Virus record (IMG/VR): IMGVR_UViG_2778261504_000002
Coordinates: 1 to 16,850 of that record
Reading direction: 5' to 3' (one strand)
Length of the DNA: 16,850 bases
Source of the DNA: a virus
Lineage: Duplodnaviria > Heunggongvirae > Uroviricota > Caudoviricetes
Part shown: positions 4,693 through 14,763 of the stretch, one piece after another
Numbering within the stretch: position 1 is the stretch's first letter
Layout: each line of letters starts with the position of its first letter
Notes under the pieces: generated by a model
Databases searched by the model: none
Told to the model about the DNA's origin: nothing
What the model saw: only the letters and a program-made list of their open reading frames with translations
Translations under genes and position numbers: made by a program

Positions 4693-4811
4693 AACGCCTC
4701 CAGTTGTTTCTTTGCTGCTCTGATTAATTGTTTAACTCGGCGTGATAATTCAGATTCGTGCGGGTAGAAAGCGGACATGACGCCGCTACCCGCGAGCTGA
4801 AAGTGCATCAT
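4677..4811 (-). CDS. cIII: cIII-like small protein (FtsH inhibitor family)
   Basis: Hand-translated 44-aa ORF MMHFQLAGSGVMSAFYPHESELSRRVKQLIRAAKKQLEALCAMK. The pattern AG..V....P.ES.L.R..R.L resembles lambda CIII (IAGWPVAGCPSESLLERITRKL). AAGGAG 6 nt upstream. The 79-aa track ORF 4677..4916 contains it, but its N-terminal part looks non-coding. Confidence 0.5.
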   Translation of the reverse strand: MMHFQLAGSGVMSAFYPHESELSRRVKQLIRAAKKQLEALCAMK

Positions 4812-4994
4812 GGGTAACTCCTTATATTTGATTGCATAACGAAAACGCCTCGAGTGAAGCGTTATTGGTATGCATATAAAAAAGCCCTCACACTGGAGGG
4901 CAAAGAAGATTTCCAATAATCAGAACAAGTCGGCTCCTGTTTAGTTACGAGCGACATTGCTCACATAGCAGACTCGCAAATCTGCTATAGGTGC

Positions 4995-5153
4995 TTATTC
5001 GCATCGCATGACAACATCAAATTTTTCGAGATTACTTTGTCGCAACAATCCTTCTTCTACGCGGTCAGCTTTTCTATAATTATCAAATTCGAAATGTTTA
5101 ATTACTTCTTTCGTTTCTCGCTCTATAACTTCAACAATGTATTTCTTATTCAT
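4995..5153 (-). CDS. small hypothetical ORF (about 52 aa)
   Basis: Hand-translated ORF (MNKKYIVEVIERETKEVIKHFEF...) whose ATG overlaps the stop of the upstream 98-aa gene (ATGA arrangement). AT-rich, below the track threshold. Confidence 0.3.
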   Translation of the reverse strand: MNKKYIVEVIERETKEVIKHFEFDNYRKADRVEEGLLRQSNLEKFDVVMRCE

Positions 5154-5449
5154 CATTCTTCCCCAAGAGCTTTTCTGATTGCTGCAAGACCTTTATTAAC
5201 AGCTCCATACCATTCTGGATATGTTGTCTTTGTTCTATTTTTGGTTTGCTTAAGTAATAACTGAAGTGCTTCGAGAAGGTCAGGTGCTGCCGCTATTAGA
5301 TTGGCATCTTCAATGCATTGAACTTCCTCACAGATTGCAATATACGAACGCCAGCCTGCGCCATTTTCAAGTGAGTCTGCCTGGATGATTTTAATCTCAT
5401 CGCCATCCATCATTATTTCCCACTTACCTTCAGTACCTTTAAATTCCAT
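5153..5449 (-). CDS. hypothetical protein
   Basis: 98-aa ORF in pL-operon polarity, immediately downstream of a terminator-like hairpin. No recognisable domain. Confidence 0.5.
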   Translation of the reverse strand: MEFKGTEGKWEIMMDGDEIKIIQADSLENGAGWRSYIAICEEVQCIEDANLIAAAPDLLEALQLLLKQTKNRTKTTYPEWYGAVNKGLAAIRKALGEE

Positions 5450-5470
5450 GTTAGCCTCTGTTGTTTATGC

Positions 5471-5496
5471 CAAAAATAAAGGCCGACTATTCGGCC
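5471..5496 (-). terminator. intrinsic terminator-like hairpin within the pL operon
   Basis: GGCCGA-N4-TCGGCC stem at 5481..5496, followed on the minus strand by TTTATTTTTG. The hairpin overlaps the stop codon of the 107-aa gene. A candidate N-suppressible terminator. Confidence 0.5.
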
Positions 5497-5810
5497 TTAT
5501 CTACATTCCTGAACCAAACGCAGATCGGACCGTCTTCTGTATCGTGAATCGAACCGACAAACCATCCTTCTCCATCTGGCATGCTTGGCTCCCATCCACT
5601 GATGTTTTGATTCCCATCTTCAAAATACGCGTCAATTACCGTTTGATTGTTGTCGTTTTCCATTTCAACAATTGATGATTCAATGCCATGCTGCTTGCAG
5701 AAAGATCTGAACTCATCAGCTGAAATTACCTCTCTATCCCCAAACAGGTTGGCGTATTCTGGGTGCGTCCAGTAGCCATCCTCGCTTCGCTCTACTACTA
5801 ATGCTTCCAT
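5487..5810 (-). CDS. hypothetical, strongly acidic protein
   Basis: 107-aa ORF with a GAGGTG ribosome-binding site. About 24 Asp/Glu against about 6 basic residues. No recognisable domain. Confidence 0.55.
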   Translation of the reverse strand: MEALVVERSEDGYWTHPEYANLFGDREVISADEFRSFCKQHGIESSIVEMENDNNQTVIDAYFEDGNQNISGWEPSMPDGEGWFVGSIHDTEDGPICVWFRNVDKAE

Positions 5811-7209: not shown

Positions 7210-7614
7210 TCACTTATTACTGTTCGTTTCCATGGGATTGGCCAAGAAATCAAAATAAGGCAGAGTGAACCTACCAAGGTTTGACATGAGGATAATTTGC
7301 TCGGCATATGTTTTTATATAGGGATATGCCATATTGGGAGCAATGGACCTTACCTCATATGATTTTGCCATTTCATGAGAAAAATCATCTTCTGACCGGA
7401 AGTCAAAGTCGTATGTGATGTCCATCTCAAGCCTGCCTTCAATAGTTACGGAGGCAAAATATCTCACTCTAAATAGCTTTGAATCCTTCACATTAGTGTA
7501 AAGTTCATTATTTAGATTAACGGTTGTTTTTATGGCTTTTTTTGCTGTTGAATCGCCTTCTAGCCGTGTCATAACCAAGCGTTCAACTTTTTTGCTAATG
7601 AGTTCAATTTTCAT
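7210..7614 (-). CDS. SecB-like chaperone of a toxin-antitoxin-chaperone (TAC) system
   Basis: 134-aa ORF whose start overlaps the antitoxin stop (ATGA). C-terminal region IAPNMAYPYIKTYAEQIILMSNLGRFTLPYFDF resembles SecB ([25 protein letters not shown]) and the M. tuberculosis TAC chaperone Rv1957 (YPYIREYVYDLTGRLALPPL). AT-rich compared with flanking phage DNA. Similarity judged from memory. Confidence 0.6.
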   Translation of the reverse strand: MKIELISKKVERLVMTRLEGDSTAKKAIKTTVNLNNELYTNVKDSKLFRVRYFASVTIEGRLEMDITYDFDFRSEDDFSHEMAKSYEVRSIAPNMAYPYIKTYAEQIILMSNLGRFTLPYFDFLANPMETNSNK

Positions 7615-8267
7615 GGTAATAATAAGTAATTTCCGTCAGAAGTCATTTCGTCATTCAGGTTGCTAGCCGCTGTGAAACTTGATGACAAGTTACTTATCAA
7701 AGAAAAAACATTCCGTTTTTCTTTGCATTTGCCATTACCCCTTACTGCGCTGAACAACATTTTTGAAAAGTAAGATTCTGTAGCCTTTTCAGCGAAATAA
7801 GCAGAAGGTGATGTGACGGCTGACTCACACCGAGCAATGACGCTAGTCATGGCTGTTTCTTCTTCCTCTGCGTCAACTAGGCTCCATTCAATTGCGCTCA
7901 TATCTTGAATTAAGATATCTGCAGGAATTCCAAGTCCGTCATGTAGTCTACGGATCATTGAAAGACTTAATGGACGCTTACGATTTAAGACCTCAGATAC
8001 TTTAGATGCTGAGCCAATGTATTGTTTCATATCGGCATAAGAGAGGCCTTGTTGATCCATACGGAACTTGATTGCTTCTATGGGATCTGGCTTGTCCATA
8101 GGGAACTCGCGTGACTCATAGTGCTCGATAAGCAAGCCTAGTAGTTCAAACTCATCAAAATCTTCAGTTCCAGGTTGTAAATCACTAGACGCAAGTTCAA
8201 TGAGCCTTTCCATAGCTGCAGCATGCTCTTCACTATTTTTAATGATGCGCCAGCTAGTTCGATTCAT
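7611..8267 (-). CDS. higA: HigA-like HTH antitoxin with a roughly 95-aa C-terminal extension
   Basis: Residues about 60-125 (IKFRMDQQGLSYADMKQYIGSASKVSEVLNRKRPLSLSMIRRLHDGLGIPADIL) resemble E. coli HigA. The ORF continues about 95 aa beyond the point where canonical HigA ends. Start overlaps the toxin stop. Confidence 0.7.
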   Translation of the reverse strand: MNRTSWRIIKNSEEHAAAMERLIELASSDLQPGTEDFDEFELLGLLIEHYESREFPMDKPDPIEAIKFRMDQQGLSYADMKQYIGSASKVSEVLNRKRPLSLSMIRRLHDGLGIPADILIQDMSAIEWSLVDAEEEETAMTSVIARCESAVTSPSAYFAEKATESYFSKMLFSAVRGNGKCKEKRNVFSLISNLSSSFTAASNLNDEMTSDGNYLLLP

Positions 8268-8551
8268 TTAAGCCTCCACTTGTCGTACTCTGCATGAGTT
8301 CCAACTCTTTCAACTATGACCATTCCTGCCTGGTAAACAACTTGGACAACGAGCCGATAGTTATTGCCTTTTATATTAAAAATTACCCTGTTGTTAGGAA
8401 GGAAGTCGGCAGAATTAAATCTATTCCGTATGTCTTGAGTCGTTTTCCAGTTTTCTCTTATCACTTCATCATACCAAGAGTCTAAAGCCCCCTTGGCCTG
8501 ATTGTGCTTCCGGCTAAAACTGTGAAGCTTCTCTACGTTTAAGACCTTCAT
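8264..8551 (-). CDS. higB: HigB-like toxin (RelE/ParE-fold mRNA interferase)
   Basis: 95-aa ORF. C-terminal RVIFNIKGNNYRLVVQVVYQAGMVIVERVGTHAEYDKW aligns with E. coli HigB (HYVFNVGGNELRVVAMVFFESQKCYIREVMTHKEYD) as I recall it. Toxin-first order and tight coupling to the antitoxin. Confidence 0.75.
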   Translation of the reverse strand: MKVLNVEKLHSFSRKHNQAKGALDSWYDEVIRENWKTTQDIRNRFNSADFLPNNRVIFNIKGNNYRLVVQVVYQAGMVIVERVGTHAEYDKWRLK

Positions 8552-12888: not shown

Positions 12889-13061
12889 GACGACAGCGAC
12901 GAAGTATCACCGACATAATCTGTGAAAACTGCAAATACCTTCCAACGAAACGCTCCAGAAATAAACGCAAGCCAATCCCAAAAGAATCTGACGTAAAAAC
13001 CTTCAACTACACGGCTCACCTGTGGGATATCCGGTGGCTAAGACATCGTGCGAGGAAATGA
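12885..13061 (+). CDS. ninE: NinE
   Basis: Track ORF 12840..13061 trimmed to the ATG at 12885 ([27 protein letters not shown]...), near-identical to lambda NinE. ATGA overlap with ninB. Confidence 0.85.
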
Positions 13062-13063
13062 CA

Positions 13064-13465
13064 ATGCTTTTAATTCAACCTGGATTTGGACTTAGCATCA
13101 AAAAAGGCCACATGTTTGGCGAGAAAGAGTCACAACGAAAAATGGTGTCTATCCGGTTGCCATTTATCAGTATTTATTGGCTAAACAGGGAGGCAACAAA
13201 TTATTGGTATACATGCGCCAGAGCAGCATTTAACGACCCTGACTGGTTTGTGAAAAACCACCACGCAGTTCGTCAGGCAAAGAGAAAGGCCAATATGACA
13301 TACATGAAGGCGTATCAAAAAGCATGGAAAGAACACCGCGATCGATACCAACAAGACATGGAAAAGCTTGAATCAGAAAACATGGAATTAAGACGAAAGC
13401 TCGGTGAAGCAAAACGAGACATTGATGCTTACAAGCGACTTTTTAATGGTGAAAGCCATGCTTAG
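13064..13465 (+). CDS. hypothetical protein (start uncertain)
   Basis: Track ORF 13022..13465. ATG at 13064 has GAGGAA 7 nt upstream. The C-terminal part is coiled-coil-like. Lies between ninE and ninF, which abut each other in lambda. Confidence 0.4.
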   Translation: MLLIQPGFGLSIKKGHMFGEKESQRKMVSIRLPFISIYWLNREATNYWYTCARAAFNDPDWFVKNHHAVRQAKRKANMTYMKAYQKAWKEHRDRYQQDMEKLESENMELRRKLGEAKRDIDAYKRLFNGESHA

Positions 13466-13634
13466 CCCATCCCAATCCCTTCAATACCAGAAAGAAAGCG
13501 TCGAGCGAGCTTTAACGTGCGCTAACTGCGGTCAGAAGCTGCATGTGCTGGAAGTTCACGTGTGTGAGCACTGCTGCGCAGAACTGATGAGCGATCCGAA
13601 TAGCTCAATGTACGAGGAAGAAGACGATGAGTGA
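13458..13634 (+). CDS. ninF: NinF
   Basis: Track ORF 13404..13634 trimmed to MLSPSQSLQYQKESVERALTCANCGQKLHVLEVHVCEHCCAELMSDPNSSM..., which matches lambda NinF. Confidence 0.85.
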   Translation: MLSPSQSLQYQKESVERALTCANCGQKLHVLEVHVCEHCCAELMSDPNSSMYEEEDDE

Positions 13635-14136
13635 TGTTAAAGAAAAAGATATCCCCGGCTTTGAGGGTATATATAAAGTAACTGAAAATGGAGACATCAT
13701 TTCATGCCGTAAATCAAAAAAATTATCTCATGGCATTAAACCAGGAGGATATGCATTTGTCGGTCTGTATCCAGGTGGCGGGAAAAGACCATCATATAAA
13801 ATGGTTCACAGAATTGTTGCAGAAGTATTTATTGATAACCCAGATGGCAAACCGGAAGTTAATCACAAGGATGGAAATAAACTTAATAATAAAGTTGAAA
13901 ATCTTGAGTGGGTAACGCGAACAGAAAATGCGAAACATGGATTTGATTCCGGATTGCTTGTTCATGGGTTTAATCATCACTTCTGCAAACTAACGCCAGA
14001 ACAAGTGAAATCAATATATAAATCAAAAGGCAAATACAGAGATATAGCCAAAGAATTTGGTGTTTGTGCGCAGACAGTGTGCAACATAAAAAACAAATCA
14101 GCGTACCGACGTTTTTTGGAGGGGATTGATGTTTAG
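13627..14136 (+). CDS. HNH homing-type endonuclease
   Basis: 169-aa ORF with a NUMOD4-like N-terminus (GFEGIYKVTENGDIIS) and an HNH motif (VNHKDGNKLNNKVENLEWVTRTENAKHG). Markedly AT-rich codon usage relative to neighbours. Confidence 0.75.
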   Translation: MSDVKEKDIPGFEGIYKVTENGDIISCRKSKKLSHGIKPGGYAFVGLYPGGGKRPSYKMVHRIVAEVFIDNPDGKPEVNHKDGNKLNNKVENLEWVTRTENAKHGFDSGLLVHGFNHHFCKLTPEQVKSIYKSKGKYRDIAKEFGVCAQTVCNIKNKSAYRRFLEGIDV

Positions 14137-14404
14137 AAGCAAAAAATGGCTTCAGGCAGTCAGGGATATTGAATTTTGCGTTCTTTGCGGAAGATACGGA
14201 GTTCAGGCCGCTCATAGAAATGAAGGGAAGGGGGTTGGGATTAAAGTAGATGATTGCCTTACTGCTGCGCTATGTGTTGATTGTCATTCAAGAATTGATA
14301 ATGGGAGAGATATGAGCAGGGAAGAGCGAAGGGCTGAAATGGATCGGGCCATTGTGCTTACCCTTAAAAAATTGGTTAACAATGGGAGGGTGTTTGTCCA
14401 ATGA
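14126..14404 (+). CDS. DUF1364/YbcO-like Cys-rich protein (putative nuclease)
   Basis: 92-aa ORF with CVLCG...AAH...CVDCH..ID, similar in layout to prophage YbcO-type proteins. Sits directly upstream of rusA, as in DLP12-like nin regions. Confidence 0.55.
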   Translation: MMFRSKKWLQAVRDIEFCVLCGRYGVQAAHRNEGKGVGIKVDDCLTAALCVDCHSRIDNGRDMSREERRAEMDRAIVLTLKKLVNNGRVFVQ

Positions 14405-14763
14405 ACGAATATCAGTTTGTGCTTCCATACCCGCCGTCGGTGAATACCTACTGGCGAAGACGGGGAAGCCAATACTACATCAGCGATAAAGGCCAGAAAT
14501 ACCGAAAAGACGTTCAGCAAATCATCCGCCAACTTAAGTTAGACATTTTCACCAAATCACGACTCCGCATCAAAGTCATCGCAGACGCTCCAGACTCCCG
14601 CCGCCGCGACCTCGACAACATCCTGAAAGGTTTACTCGACTCACTTATCCACGCCGGATTTGCGGAAGACGACGAGCAATTCGATGACATTCGCGTAATT
14701 CGTGGTGTGAAAGTACCAGGCGGACGGCTTGGAATAAAAATCACCGAACTGGAGAACGTATGA
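14401..14763 (+). CDS. rusA: RusA Holliday-junction resolvase
   Basis: 120-aa ORF. LPYPPSVNTYWRRRG...DRRRRDLDNILKGLLDSL...GGRLGIKITE matches E. coli RusA motifs (LPWPPSNNRYY...DRRRRDLDN...GGRLELTITE). Confidence 0.9.
   Translation: MNEYQFVLPYPPSVNTYWRRRGSQYYISDKGQKYRKDVQQIIRQLKLDIFTKSRLRIKVIADAPDSRRRDLDNILKGLLDSLIHAGFAEDDEQFDDIRVIRGVKVPGGRLGIKITELENV

Follow-up and report, generated by a model that had tools for sequence, protein, structure and literature searches.

What does an AT-rich HNH gene do among the early genes (the "nin" region) of a lambda-like Escherichia coli prophage, and how did it come to lie between ninF and the genes for a YbcO-like protein and RusA? An earlier note on this DNA had placed the gene there, at the point where lambda has ninG, and Pfam matches and coordinates confirm the position; the lambda order at the equivalent place is ninF-ninG-ninH. 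Lambda ninG is the functional counterpart of the ybcO-like and rusA pair, and the HNH gene is an extra. We propose, with a probability of roughly 0.6, that the ORF encodes a free-standing I-HmuI-like homing endonuclease that spreads a cassette by ybcO-directed cutting and repair. Positions below refer to the window, the whole stretch of 16,850 nucleotides that was analysed. Its relevant features are:

13458-13634, + strand: ninF (58 aa; Pfam NinF, 3.1e-12), left homology arm common to endonuclease-lacking phages
13627-14136, + strand: HNH gene, NUMOD4-HNH_3, I-HmuI-like, free-standing, 169 aa (Pfam, PHROG, PADLOC, PDB, AF2)
13636-14400, + strand: exchanged cassette (HNH gene and 91-aa gene), relative to HK97/mEp235/ECP1-type nin regions
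13645-13770, + strand: NUMOD4 N-terminal beta-strand DNA-binding module, aa 7-48 (Pfam PF07463, model)
13798-13938, + strand: HNH (beta-beta-alpha-metal) catalytic core, aa 58-104 (Pfam HNH_3, I-HmuI alignment)
13861-13866, 13900-13902, 13927-13929 and 13936-13938, + strand: catalytic-core residues N79-H80, N92, N101 and H104, respectively
14029-14097, + strand: putative C-terminal helix-turn-helix DNA-binding module, aa ~135-157 (sub-threshold Pfam, model)
14129-14404, + strand: 91-aa YbcO-like His-Me-finger gene (phrog_131, 6e-31), second gene of the cassette
14401-14763, + strand: rusA, Holliday-junction resolvase (Pfam RusA, 1.9e-16), right homology arm common to endonuclease-lacking phages

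Domains, fold and catalytic residues of the HNH protein

The HNH gene is an intact ORF with its ATG at 13627 and its TAG at 14134-14136. NUMOD4-like and HNH motifs had been claimed for it, and an HMM search places both Pfam domains above their cut-offs: NUMOD4 (PF07463) scores 29.2 bits (cut-off 23.4) over aa 7-48 and HNH_3 (PF13392) 42.2 bits (cut-off 24.8) over aa 58-102, and the catalytic His and Asn residues are preserved. The protein also matches phrog_59 'HNH endonuclease' (7.6e-51) and the PADLOC 'HEase' model PDLC03687 (9.7e-25); NCBIfam gave no model match for it or for the 91-aa protein. Its only significant relative of solved structure, by sequence and by fold, is I-HmuI of Bacillus phage SPO1. 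PDB entry 1U3E is matched in sequence over aa 6-121 (E = 8.9e-19), and a Foldseek search of the PDB with the AF2 model (pLDDT 94.1) gave a single significant match, 1u3e_M, with E = 5.8e-10 and 165 aligned columns for a protein of 169 aa.

I-HmuI and the HNH protein are nearly equal in length (174 versus 169 aa) and have the same module order, namely a beta DNA-binding module, the HNH core, a helical linker and a C-terminal helix-turn-helix. The NUMOD4 module, whose strands are modelled at aa 6-8, 16-19, 24-26 and 43-47, aligns with I-HmuI residues 3-50. At the C-terminus, HTH_23 and CENP-B_N match aa 135-157 below the Pfam threshold; the helix-turn-helix sits inside a helical region (aa 124-166) whose model helices (aa 124-132, 137-144, 148-155 and 161-166) are all contained in the alignment to 1u3e_M. 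H80, N92 and N101 align with H75, N87 and N96 of I-HmuI, and V78, N79, H80, N92, N101 and H104 are unchanged across 52 relatives. H80 is predicted to act as the general base and N101 as a metal ligand, with N92 completing the predicted core. The H-N-N pattern, NUMOD4 above its cut-off and the C-terminal helices in the structural alignment assign the protein to the HNH_3/I-HmuI-like His-Me fingers (group 2 of PMC5714182); HNH_3, NUMOD and HTH architectures have been placed in the homing-endonuclease group of I-HmuI (PMC5714182).

The Asp-His dyad of I-HmuI (D74-H75) is Asn79-His80 in the HNH protein. Loss of the Asp could mark an inactive endonuclease gene that persists by hitch-hiking, as could the E. 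coli EA7 copy, which a premature stop cuts to 94 aa (one of the 34 copies found in 5426 complete E. coli genomes). However, Asn precedes the catalytic His in 111 of 113 family members with a readable motif (120 scanned), so N79 is the norm of the subfamily, and the other catalytic positions are invariant. All but one of the 34 genomes have a match that covers 80% or more of the gene. Relatives of the protein show dN of 0.13-0.35 with saturated dS; dN is thus far below dS, the protein is therefore under purifying selection, and the model is confident throughout (pLDDT 94). We regard a decaying relic as highly improbable.

Gene overlaps, base composition and the 91-aa neighbour

The HNH gene overlaps both neighbours, with an 8-nt start/stop overlap at each end. 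The last 8 nt of ninF, ATGAGTGA, include the HNH start codon, and a Shine-Dalgarno-like GAGGAA motif lies 7 nt upstream of the ATG. At the other end, the ATG and the GGAGGGG ribosome-binding site of the 91-aa gene fall within the 3' end of the HNH gene. Because Rfam yielded no match above threshold in the window and the ORF is co-linear with both neighbours and overlaps them, the gene is free-standing and not intron- or intein-borne; an intron-borne endonuclease was dropped as a candidate on the same Rfam result. Together with the whole-length I-HmuI fold, this bears out the earlier suggestion of a free-standing gene of homing-endonuclease type. Searches returned three promoter-like sites, versus 4.5 expected by chance, and no terminator-like sites, and neither a promoter nor a terminator of its own was seen for the HNH gene.

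Promoterless and embedded in a repressed operon, the gene should be silent in a lysogen. This bears on the idea that the nuclease cuts competing phages or satellites as a means of exclusion or interference, instead of or besides homing. The 'HEase' models of PADLOC were built from candidate defence loci, and cutting relatives that lack the endonuclease would automatically penalise co-infecting competitors, as in T2/T4 marker exclusion (PMC2790892). We nevertheless consider a weapon quite unlikely for a promoterless gene with overlapping codons in a repressed delayed-early operon, where adjacent partner defence genes are absent.

The GC content of the HNH gene (36.7%; GC3 27.6%) is, as had been claimed, below that of its neighbours (43.5-50.8%): ninF has 48.5%, the 91-aa gene 43.5%, rusA 49.3% and ninH 50.8%. 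Just 0.38% of 510-bp windows across the 16.85-kb stretch are as AT-rich.

The 91-aa protein matches Pfam YbcO and DUF968 below threshold, and a PDB sequence search with it gave chance-level matches only, so that its relationship to YbcO had to be established from a structure model. The best PDB match of the AF2 model (pLDDT 91.5) is 3g27, YbcO, with a probability of 0.99 and TM scores of 0.60/0.66; as modelled, the protein has the YbcO fold. It shares the pattern CxxC...H...CxxCH with YbcO/DUF1364 of the DLP12 prophage (PDB 3G27) and with HK97 gp66, and like theirs its gene is placed directly upstream of rusA, but it belongs to a separate allele family in Enterobacterales. Identity to mEp235 gp52, an HK97-type allele, is 27% over 55 aa, and DNA homology of the gene to mEp235 or ECP1 is absent. 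The 91-aa gene is a diverged allele of HK97 gp66/DUF1364.

The exchanged cassette and its association with ybcO

Comparison with insert-free relatives, proposed in the earlier note as a way to find the insertion site, defined an exchanged unit at 13636-14400 but yielded no otherwise identical locus that lacks only the HNH gene (an isogenic empty site). Homology to the nin regions L003 and L004 stops at 13635 and restarts at 14401. Up to 13635, ninF has 95-98% identity to its mEp235 and ECP1 counterparts, and rusA-ninH has 95-97% identity to those of the same two phages. Among 13 carriers, pairwise diversity (pi) is 0.003 for the HNH gene, 0.004 for the 91-aa gene, 0.022 for rusA and 0.031 for ninH; ten loci were chosen for an identical HNH protein, which lowers the HNH value by construction and leaves that of the 91-aa gene unaffected. 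Diversity thus steps up at about 14400, the cassette lying 6-10 times below rusA/ninH. Pairwise diversity among all carriers was used in place of identity to the window, whose ninH is an outlier and exaggerates the 'gradient'. Some ninF and rusA polymorphisms are common to carriers and non-carriers at ~60 bp or less from the cassette ends; on the rusA side some such sites appear from 14440-14445 on. A near-clonal cassette with polymorphic flanks and shared flank polymorphisms is consistent with unidirectional gene conversion that takes flanking DNA along, and ordinary recombination could also produce it.

In the 5426 complete E. coli genomes, HK97-type ninF was never found joined directly to the same 91-aa allele. 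Three genomes (RM8082, DETEC-S565 and NCTC9104) carry this allele without the HNH gene, and their homology to the carrier locus begins only at 14138. Since all three have a different ninF allele, a clean insertion event is undocumented for this HNH copy.

In the 34 E. coli genomes the HNH gene (31 copies at ≥ 99% identity) always follows ninF, in otherwise very different lambdoid prophages; the ten prophages with an identical HNH protein have different modules for immunity, replication, Q and packaging. In 957 genomes this locus is occupied by the common DUF1364/ybcO allele, whose diversity is much greater. Conservation at this position with host-like composition, which the earlier note named as evidence against an insert, does not describe an AT-rich gene found in 34 of 5426 genomes. 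Phages Louie and Dewey have the same HNH protein among their annotated products, and the gene is absent from mEp235, ECP1, HK97 and others. The exact protein is listed in roughly 2270 index blocks, each a set of assemblies, of a protein index. Relatives of the protein are found in ~2700 phage records. The gene is already annotated in public genomes and belongs to a very large family; it is probably an ordinary, if neat, selfish phage gene.

In all 12 clade neighbourhoods that were read (50-75% identity; not independent events), the HNH gene adjoins a gene of ybcO type or one for a related small His-Me protein, whereas the remaining neighbours vary. They come from E. coli, Salmonella, Citrobacter, Klebsiella, Morganella, Superficieibacter, an uncultured enterobacterial phage contig, a metagenomic phage, Aggregatibacter and Neisseria. 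In ten, an HNH gene and a 91-aa-type gene adjoin; in the remaining two, the HNH gene is next to a gene either for an upstream YbcO of DUF1364 type or for a protein of RecA_dep_nuc/DUF968 type. Adjacency to ybcO is less surprising than the count suggests, because nin regions are small and nearly always have a ybcO-type gene. Farther out in the family, 79 members in viral contigs were scanned, and not one lies within 2.5 kb of a YbcO-type gene.

In most close relatives the first ~15 codons are a copy of the 5' end of a resident ybcO allele, of the HK97 type in P0003 and of the DLP12 type in P0008; 178-aa relatives carry 15 ybcO/gp66 codons at their start. The window copy has lost this ybcO-derived leader and begins at the ninF overlap. 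The P0003-type (178-aa) cassette is absent from complete E. coli genomes.

These observations bear on whether the cassette is passive mosaic cargo, moved only by general homologous or illegitimate recombination, with the HNH protein active or inactive. Lambdoid mosaicism is usually attributed to general recombination. The breakpoints at 13635 and 14401 fall exactly at gene boundaries, as is typical of such mosaicism, and unrelated genes fill the same slot after ninF elsewhere (roi in HK97; a 270-bp ORF in mEp235 and ECP1). Nin regions are mosaic anyway, the conserved ninF/rusA flanks could move the cassette without a nuclease, and the missing isogenic empty site fits this view too. Linkage of the HNH and 91-aa genes could be neutral, since the 91-aa allele is too diverged to recombine with DUF1364 alleles. 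Still, we judge passive transfer unlikely. The protein keeps every module of I-HmuI and the catalytic residues, selection on it is purifying, and a near-clonal, AT-rich cassette recurs in many different backgrounds. Moreover, the clade keeps to ybcO-type genes across genera and has ybcO-derived leaders, the pattern that a site-specific element would be expected to leave.

The constant pairing could also mean that the HNH nickase and the 91-aa protein, perhaps with RusA, form a functional two-protein nuclease system in recombination or replication restart, and are kept together as partners instead of as parasite and target. The pair adjoins in 10 of the 12 clade contexts, its members show similar divergence (60-75% identity for HNH, 63-81% for the 91-aa protein), and the start and ribosome-binding site of the 91-aa gene lie inside the HNH gene. 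However, YbcO-type genes occur without HNH in ~960 of the 5426 E. coli genomes, the same 91-aa family is also found without it, and elsewhere the HNH family acts alone, as the 79 distant members illustrate. One carrier has a truncated HNH gene and an intact 91-aa gene. We consider a functional pair very unlikely.

In Morganella, the 91-aa form that starts M-F/Y-R-S is preceded by an endonuclease in four of four contexts. That a length of 91 aa always implies an upstream endonuclease is false, as P0148 has an unrelated 77-aa ORF upstream; a similarity search with this ORF was empty, and its interpretation as a decayed endonuclease was dropped.

A proposed model for ybcO-directed homing

On our preferred reading, the HNH gene is promoterless and free-standing, and its product is a homing endonuclease, probably a nicking one, with the ybcO locus as its special target. 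I-HmuI nicks one strand. For the HNH protein we infer cleavage as such, nicking as opposed to double-strand cutting, the target site and homing. Transcription would reach the gene by read-through of the early rightward (pR/nin) transcript, its translation would be coupled to the upstream ninF, and it would in turn provide the ribosome-binding site for the 91-aa gene. As the gene is promoterless and read from this transcript, the enzyme should be made only in lytic growth or on induction, when phage genomes would be replicating and recombining. It would then nick or break related lambdoid genomes that lack the HNH gene, likeliest in or beside ybcO/DUF1364. There are two candidate targets: one lies around codon 15, at the 5' end of DUF1364/ybcO, and the other is the junction between ninF' and the 91-aa gene in RM8082-type prophages. 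Recombinational repair templated by the carrier genome, with ninF as left and rusA as right arm, would copy in the HNH gene together with the linked, diverged and presumably uncleavable 91-aa allele, which would take over the function of the resident ybcO, in line with the YbcO fold of its modelled product.

A more specific version of the homing model is possible but doubtful. In it the cassette replaces its own target: the common DUF1364/ybcO allele would be cut near codon 15, and repair would install the nuclease gene along with a diverged, uncleavable isofunctional substitute. The ybcO-derived leader of most relatives would then be the left arm, re-copied from each new resident allele. If this were true, an endonuclease lineage would actively drive nin-region mosaicism and temperate-phage competition across Enterobacterales.

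Known systems resemble parts of this model. [quoted passage not shown] T4 MobE is closer in setting, being promoterless and intergenic beside nrdB; its nick falls in the 5' portion of the neighbouring gene of a related phage that lacks MobE, and it spreads with co-conversion of its flanks, carrying neighbouring sequence in trans (PMC2790892). This parallels the proposed spread of the HNH gene and 91-aa gene as a cassette between ninF and rusA arms. MobE, however, belongs to a different HNH subgroup (PF01844-type, PMC5714182) and to a virulent phage, and its homing has been shown experimentally, whereas that of the HNH gene is predicted. In the P22-like lambdoid Salmonella phage epsilon34, gene 31 joins the opening codons of a resident gene, in frame, to an HNH homing-endonuclease ORF (PMC2629481). 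The 178-aa relatives of the HNH gene are built likewise and open with ybcO/gp66 codons. In contrast to the HNH gene, epsilon34 gene 31 lies in the early left operon (eaE) and is of another endonuclease lineage.

Virulent phages, T4 and SPO1 among them, have well-studied free-standing homing endonucleases. Literature searches turned up neither a study of the HNH gene, nor one on homing in the nin regions of lambdoid phages, nor experimental work on free-standing homing endonucleases in temperate lambdoid phages. If the HNH gene homes, it would offer a tractable system, with Louie and Dewey as carriers and mEp235, HK97 and ECP1 as non-carriers, all plating on E. coli K-12. Such crosses could test whether nucleases of this selfish kind mould the nin region and determine the winning prophage alleles in co-infection or polylysogeny.

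The HNH gene was also compared with the terminase-associated HNH type of HK97 gp74, a PF01844-type gene beside the terminase genes and cos site, which was ruled out: the HNH gene is of HNH_3 type and lies in the nin region. At the locus L009 a separate PF01844/HNH_5 gene adjoins the terminase. That genes of this class are mobile in this region is supported by L017, where an unrelated HNH_3 gene lies within ninF, and by L014, which represents its isogenic empty site.

The HNH gene and its product

The window is a lambdoid prophage with genes for a cI-type repressor, N, the O and P replication proteins, a nin region, Q, a holin and a lysozyme. The AT-rich gene highlighted in the earlier note (hereafter the HNH gene) lies exactly where it was placed, with its ATG at 13627 and its TAG at 14134-14136.

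Gene order in the nin region, and domains of the HNH protein
ninB, then ninE
13022-13465, NinX-like ORF (147 aa, phrog_1511, start codon uncertain), between ninE and ninF
13458-13634, ninF
13627-14136, + strand, HNH gene, 169 aa
aa 7-48 of the HNH protein, NUMOD4 (Pfam; 29.2 bits, cut-off 23.4)
aa 58-102, HNH_3 (Pfam; 42.2 bits, cut-off 24.8)
aa 135-157, helix-turn-helix matches (Pfam, sub-threshold)
14129-14404, YbcO-like gene of 91 aa (the 91-aa gene)
14401-14763, rusA
ninH, then Q

Both motifs read from the sequence thus exceed their Pfam cut-offs. The protein is assigned to phrog_59 'HNH endonuclease' (7.6e-51) and matches the PADLOC 'HEase' model (9.7e-25); no NCBIfam model matched it. 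Its gene is indeed poorer in GC (36.7%, GC3 27.6%) than ninF (48.5%), rusA (49.3%), ninH (50.8%) and Q (48.7%), and 0.38% of 510-bp segments across the 16.85 kb are as AT-rich. Lambda reads ninF-ninG-ninH at the equivalent place, so the earlier note was right to set the HNH gene between ninF and the YbcO-like/rusA genes, where lambda has ninG. However, the functional counterpart of ninG (Rap) is the ybcO-like and rusA pair, and the HNH gene is extra relative to lambda.

Among solved structures, the sole significant sequence match is the homing endonuclease I-HmuI of Bacillus phage SPO1 (PDB 1U3E; E=8.9e-19, residues 6-121). An AlphaFold model (52 relatives in the alignment, pLDDT 94.1) was compared with the PDB by Foldseek, and again 1u3e_M alone was significant (165 columns, E=5.8e-10). 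The entire architecture is therefore common to both proteins: an N-terminal beta module, a beta-beta-alpha-metal core, a linker helix and a C-terminal three-helix module. H80, N92 and N101 are the counterparts of H75, N87 and N96 of I-HmuI and do not vary among the 52 relatives; D74 of I-HmuI is replaced by N79. Since 111 of the 113 family members with a readable motif (120 scanned) have Asn here, N79 is the subfamily norm and no lesion. HNH_3 proteins with NUMOD and HTH modules have been classed as group 2 homing endonucleases (PMC5714182). Relatives 60-75% identical to the HNH protein show dN of 0.13-0.35 against saturated dS, from which we conclude that it is maintained by selection. Conservation and selection contradict a decaying relic, which we regard as extremely improbable.

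The ATG is embedded in the 3' end of ninF (ATGAGTGA), with GAGGAA 7 nt before it, and the stop codon overlaps the beginning of the 91-aa gene (ATGTTTAG); the GGAGGGG ribosome-binding site of the latter falls within the HNH gene. Between 12400 and 15600 no terminator-like sites were found and promoter-like sites did not exceed the number expected by chance; RNA-family models gave no match in the window, and so no sign of a group I intron. On these grounds the gene is free-standing and promoterless within the delayed-early rightward operon, presumably silent in the lysogen and produced in lytic growth. Domains, I-HmuI fold and position in the operon together bear out the identification as a free-standing homing-type endonuclease. 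An interference or exclusion nuclease is quite unlikely, because the promoterless operon context argues against expression in a lysogen.

A two-gene cassette in many prophage backgrounds

RefSeq and GenBank already annotate the gene, which is part of a very large family in phages: relatives occur in about 2739 phage records. Phages Louie and Dewey encode the identical protein, annotated 'HNH endonuclease'. The gene is found in 34 of 5426 complete E. coli genomes, annotated beside ninF in every case and mostly labelled 'NUMOD4 motif-containing HNH endonuclease'; 31 of these copies are at least 99% identical. The exact protein occurs in about 2270 blocks (sets of assemblies) of a protein index. 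New here are the cassette of two genes and its near-clonal spread, together with the leaders derived from ybcO and the fidelity of the clade to that locus.

Comparison with prophages lacking the insert, proposed in the earlier note, did define boundaries, but of two genes and not of the HNH gene alone. DNA homology to mEp235 and ECP1 ends at 13635, one base past the ninF stop, and begins again at 14401, where rusA starts, so that the segment exchanged consists of the HNH gene plus the 91-aa gene. In its place mEp235 and ECP1 have a 270-bp ORF and a DUF1364/ybcO gene of the HK97 gp66 type, and HK97, HK022 and HK620 have roi in that slot. No isogenic empty site for the HNH gene alone was found among the genomes searched. 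Three genomes carry the 91-aa allele (98.5% identical) without the HNH gene, but behind a ninF allele that differs from the window's, and their homology to the window starts at 14138.

Identity between the 91-aa protein and gp66 is only 27%, and the protein is sub-threshold for Pfam YbcO and DUF968. The best match of its model (pLDDT 91.5) is YbcO (PDB 3g27, prob 0.99, TM 0.60/0.66), followed by HNH nucleases. The protein belongs, as a diverged member, to the YbcO/gp66 His-Me finger group and has its own family across Enterobacterales.

Across the window and 12 carriers, nucleotide diversity is 0.004 in the 91-aa gene and 0.003 in the HNH gene (the latter biased low because ten loci were chosen for identical protein, the former free of such bias) versus 0.022 in rusA and 0.031 in ninH. 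The step falls at about 14400 and supports the cassette boundary. The alternative DUF1364 allele, in 957 genomes, is far more diverse than the cassette. Ten sampled carriers are very dissimilar prophages, with several immunity regions, three Q types, O/P, DnaB- or DnaC-type replication modules and HK97-, P22-, Sf6- and other types of packaging modules; common to all is the block ninF-HNH-91aa-rusA-ninH. Some polymorphic sites in ninF and rusA near the cassette are common to carriers and non-carriers. From these patterns the cassette looks like a young AT-rich unit that entered many backgrounds via crossovers in ninF and rusA. That general recombination moves the cassette as passive mosaic cargo is an unlikely, though not negligible, account of this mobility.

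Two further polymorphisms were seen. The 147-aa NinX-like ORF occurs in the window, in Louie and in ECP1 and is missing from Dewey, mEp235 and several carriers, a patchy occurrence that marks it as a separate presence/absence polymorphism beside the cassette. The HNH gene of E. coli EA7 (NZ_CP069709.1, locus L034, 1201-1485), one of the 34 genome copies, has a single-base difference and carries the annotation 'NUMOD4 domain-containing protein' with a length of 94 aa, so that its product ends before the catalytic core; the 91-aa gene 3' of it is intact.

Association with ybcO and a model for spread

We read the neighbourhoods of clade members (50-75% identity) from E. coli (two), Salmonella, Citrobacter, Klebsiella aerogenes, Morganella, Superficieibacter, an uncultured enterobacterial phage contig, a metagenomic phage, Aggregatibacter and Neisseria. 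The upstream gene varies (ninF, an 81-aa ORF, a DNA methylase, DUF1367 or NinB), as does the gene past the endonuclease/His-Me pair (rusA or different Q types), and a small His-Me nuclease gene adjoins the endonuclease gene in every one. In ten contexts this gene lies downstream and is of the 91-aa type or encodes YbcO proper; in Aggregatibacter YbcO, and in Neisseria a RecA_dep_nuc/DUF968-type protein, is encoded upstream. In a Pseudomonas relative (44% identity) the distance to a gene of this kind is about 440 bp. As a control, 0 of 79 more distant family members on viral contigs had a YbcO-type gene within 2.5 kb. These neighbourhoods point to the ybcO locus as the probable home of the element. 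That the HNH protein and the YbcO-like protein form a functional nuclease pair we consider very unlikely, since most YbcO-type genes are found with no HNH gene.

Most close relatives are 178-180 aa long because of about 15 additional codons at the start. The leader of relative P0003 is MANLRKEARGRECQV; at the DNA level its 45 nt share 87-91% identity with the opening 45 nt of mEp235 gp52 (HK97 gp66 type), beyond which the sequences diverge. That of P0008, MADLRKAARGREC, agrees with DLP12 YbcO, so the leader differs between relatives according to the ybcO allele.

ybcO-derived leaders (proteins P0002-P0024; L-numbers are the loci compared)
L019/L020, 4001-4045
L196, 1972-2016
L116, 1465-1509

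These relatives are therefore in-frame chimeras with the resident ybcO start, and resemble phage epsilon34, in which an HNH homing endonuclease is fused in frame to the N-terminus of a resident gene (PMC2629481). The window copy is without a leader and begins at the ninF overlap. Contexts of P0148 (L200-L202) have a 91-aa 'MYRS...' ybcO-like allele but no endonuclease; before the allele comes an unrelated ORF of 77 aa, and the two overlap by 35 nt at the allele's start. A short N-terminus thus cannot be relied on as a sign that an endonuclease gene lies upstream.

The best parallel is with MobE of phage T4. This free-standing HNH endonuclease, whose gene has no promoter, attacks phages without MobE by nicking a neighbouring gene in its 5' portion, and spreads by recombinational repair with co-conversion of flanks, its home copy being protected by polymorphisms (PMC2790892). 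By this analogy we favour a homing endonuclease spreading by a MobE-like mechanism (probability about 0.6). The architecture, its conservation, the place in the operon, the limits of the cassette, the pattern of diversity and the link to the ybcO locus are observed, and activity, target and homing are inferred. During lytic growth or induction the enzyme would nick or cut related genomes, tentatively in or beside the ybcO gene; repair templated by the carrier, with ninF and rusA as arms, would copy in the endonuclease gene together with the diverged 91-aa ybcO substitute.

Other HNH genes and low-GC blocks

A second, unrelated HNH_3 (+AP2-like) gene (168 aa, GC 35.7%) lies inside ninF in L017 (GCA_036663335.1, 5405-5947). 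It divides ninF at ...HVCE(H/R)C / CAELMS..., leaving a 27-codon 3' remnant directly 5' of a window-type HNH gene; L014 (5790-5943), identical across 154 bp upstream and without the insert, is its empty site. Lambdoid prophages with the window's HNH gene hold further free-standing HNH_3 genes (L013 8266-8787; L016 3918-4505 and 8031-8543), one NUMOD4-HNH_3 between Q and the holin gene and two AP2-HNH_3. A 376-aa ORF of a Morganella phage (L198, 3325-4455) has both an HNH_3 and an antiterminator-Q domain and appears to be a further in-frame fusion.

In the window itself, 4793-5530 on the early-left side has GC of at most 39%, and a low-GC block of three genes occupies the interval between N and the gene for the cI-type repressor, where lambda has rexAB. 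This block is possibly toxin-antitoxin or defence cargo.

Three-gene block, 7210-8551, - strand
7210-7614, 134-aa ORF
7611-8267, HTH protein
8264-8551, HigB/RelE-like toxin (Pfam 4e-30)
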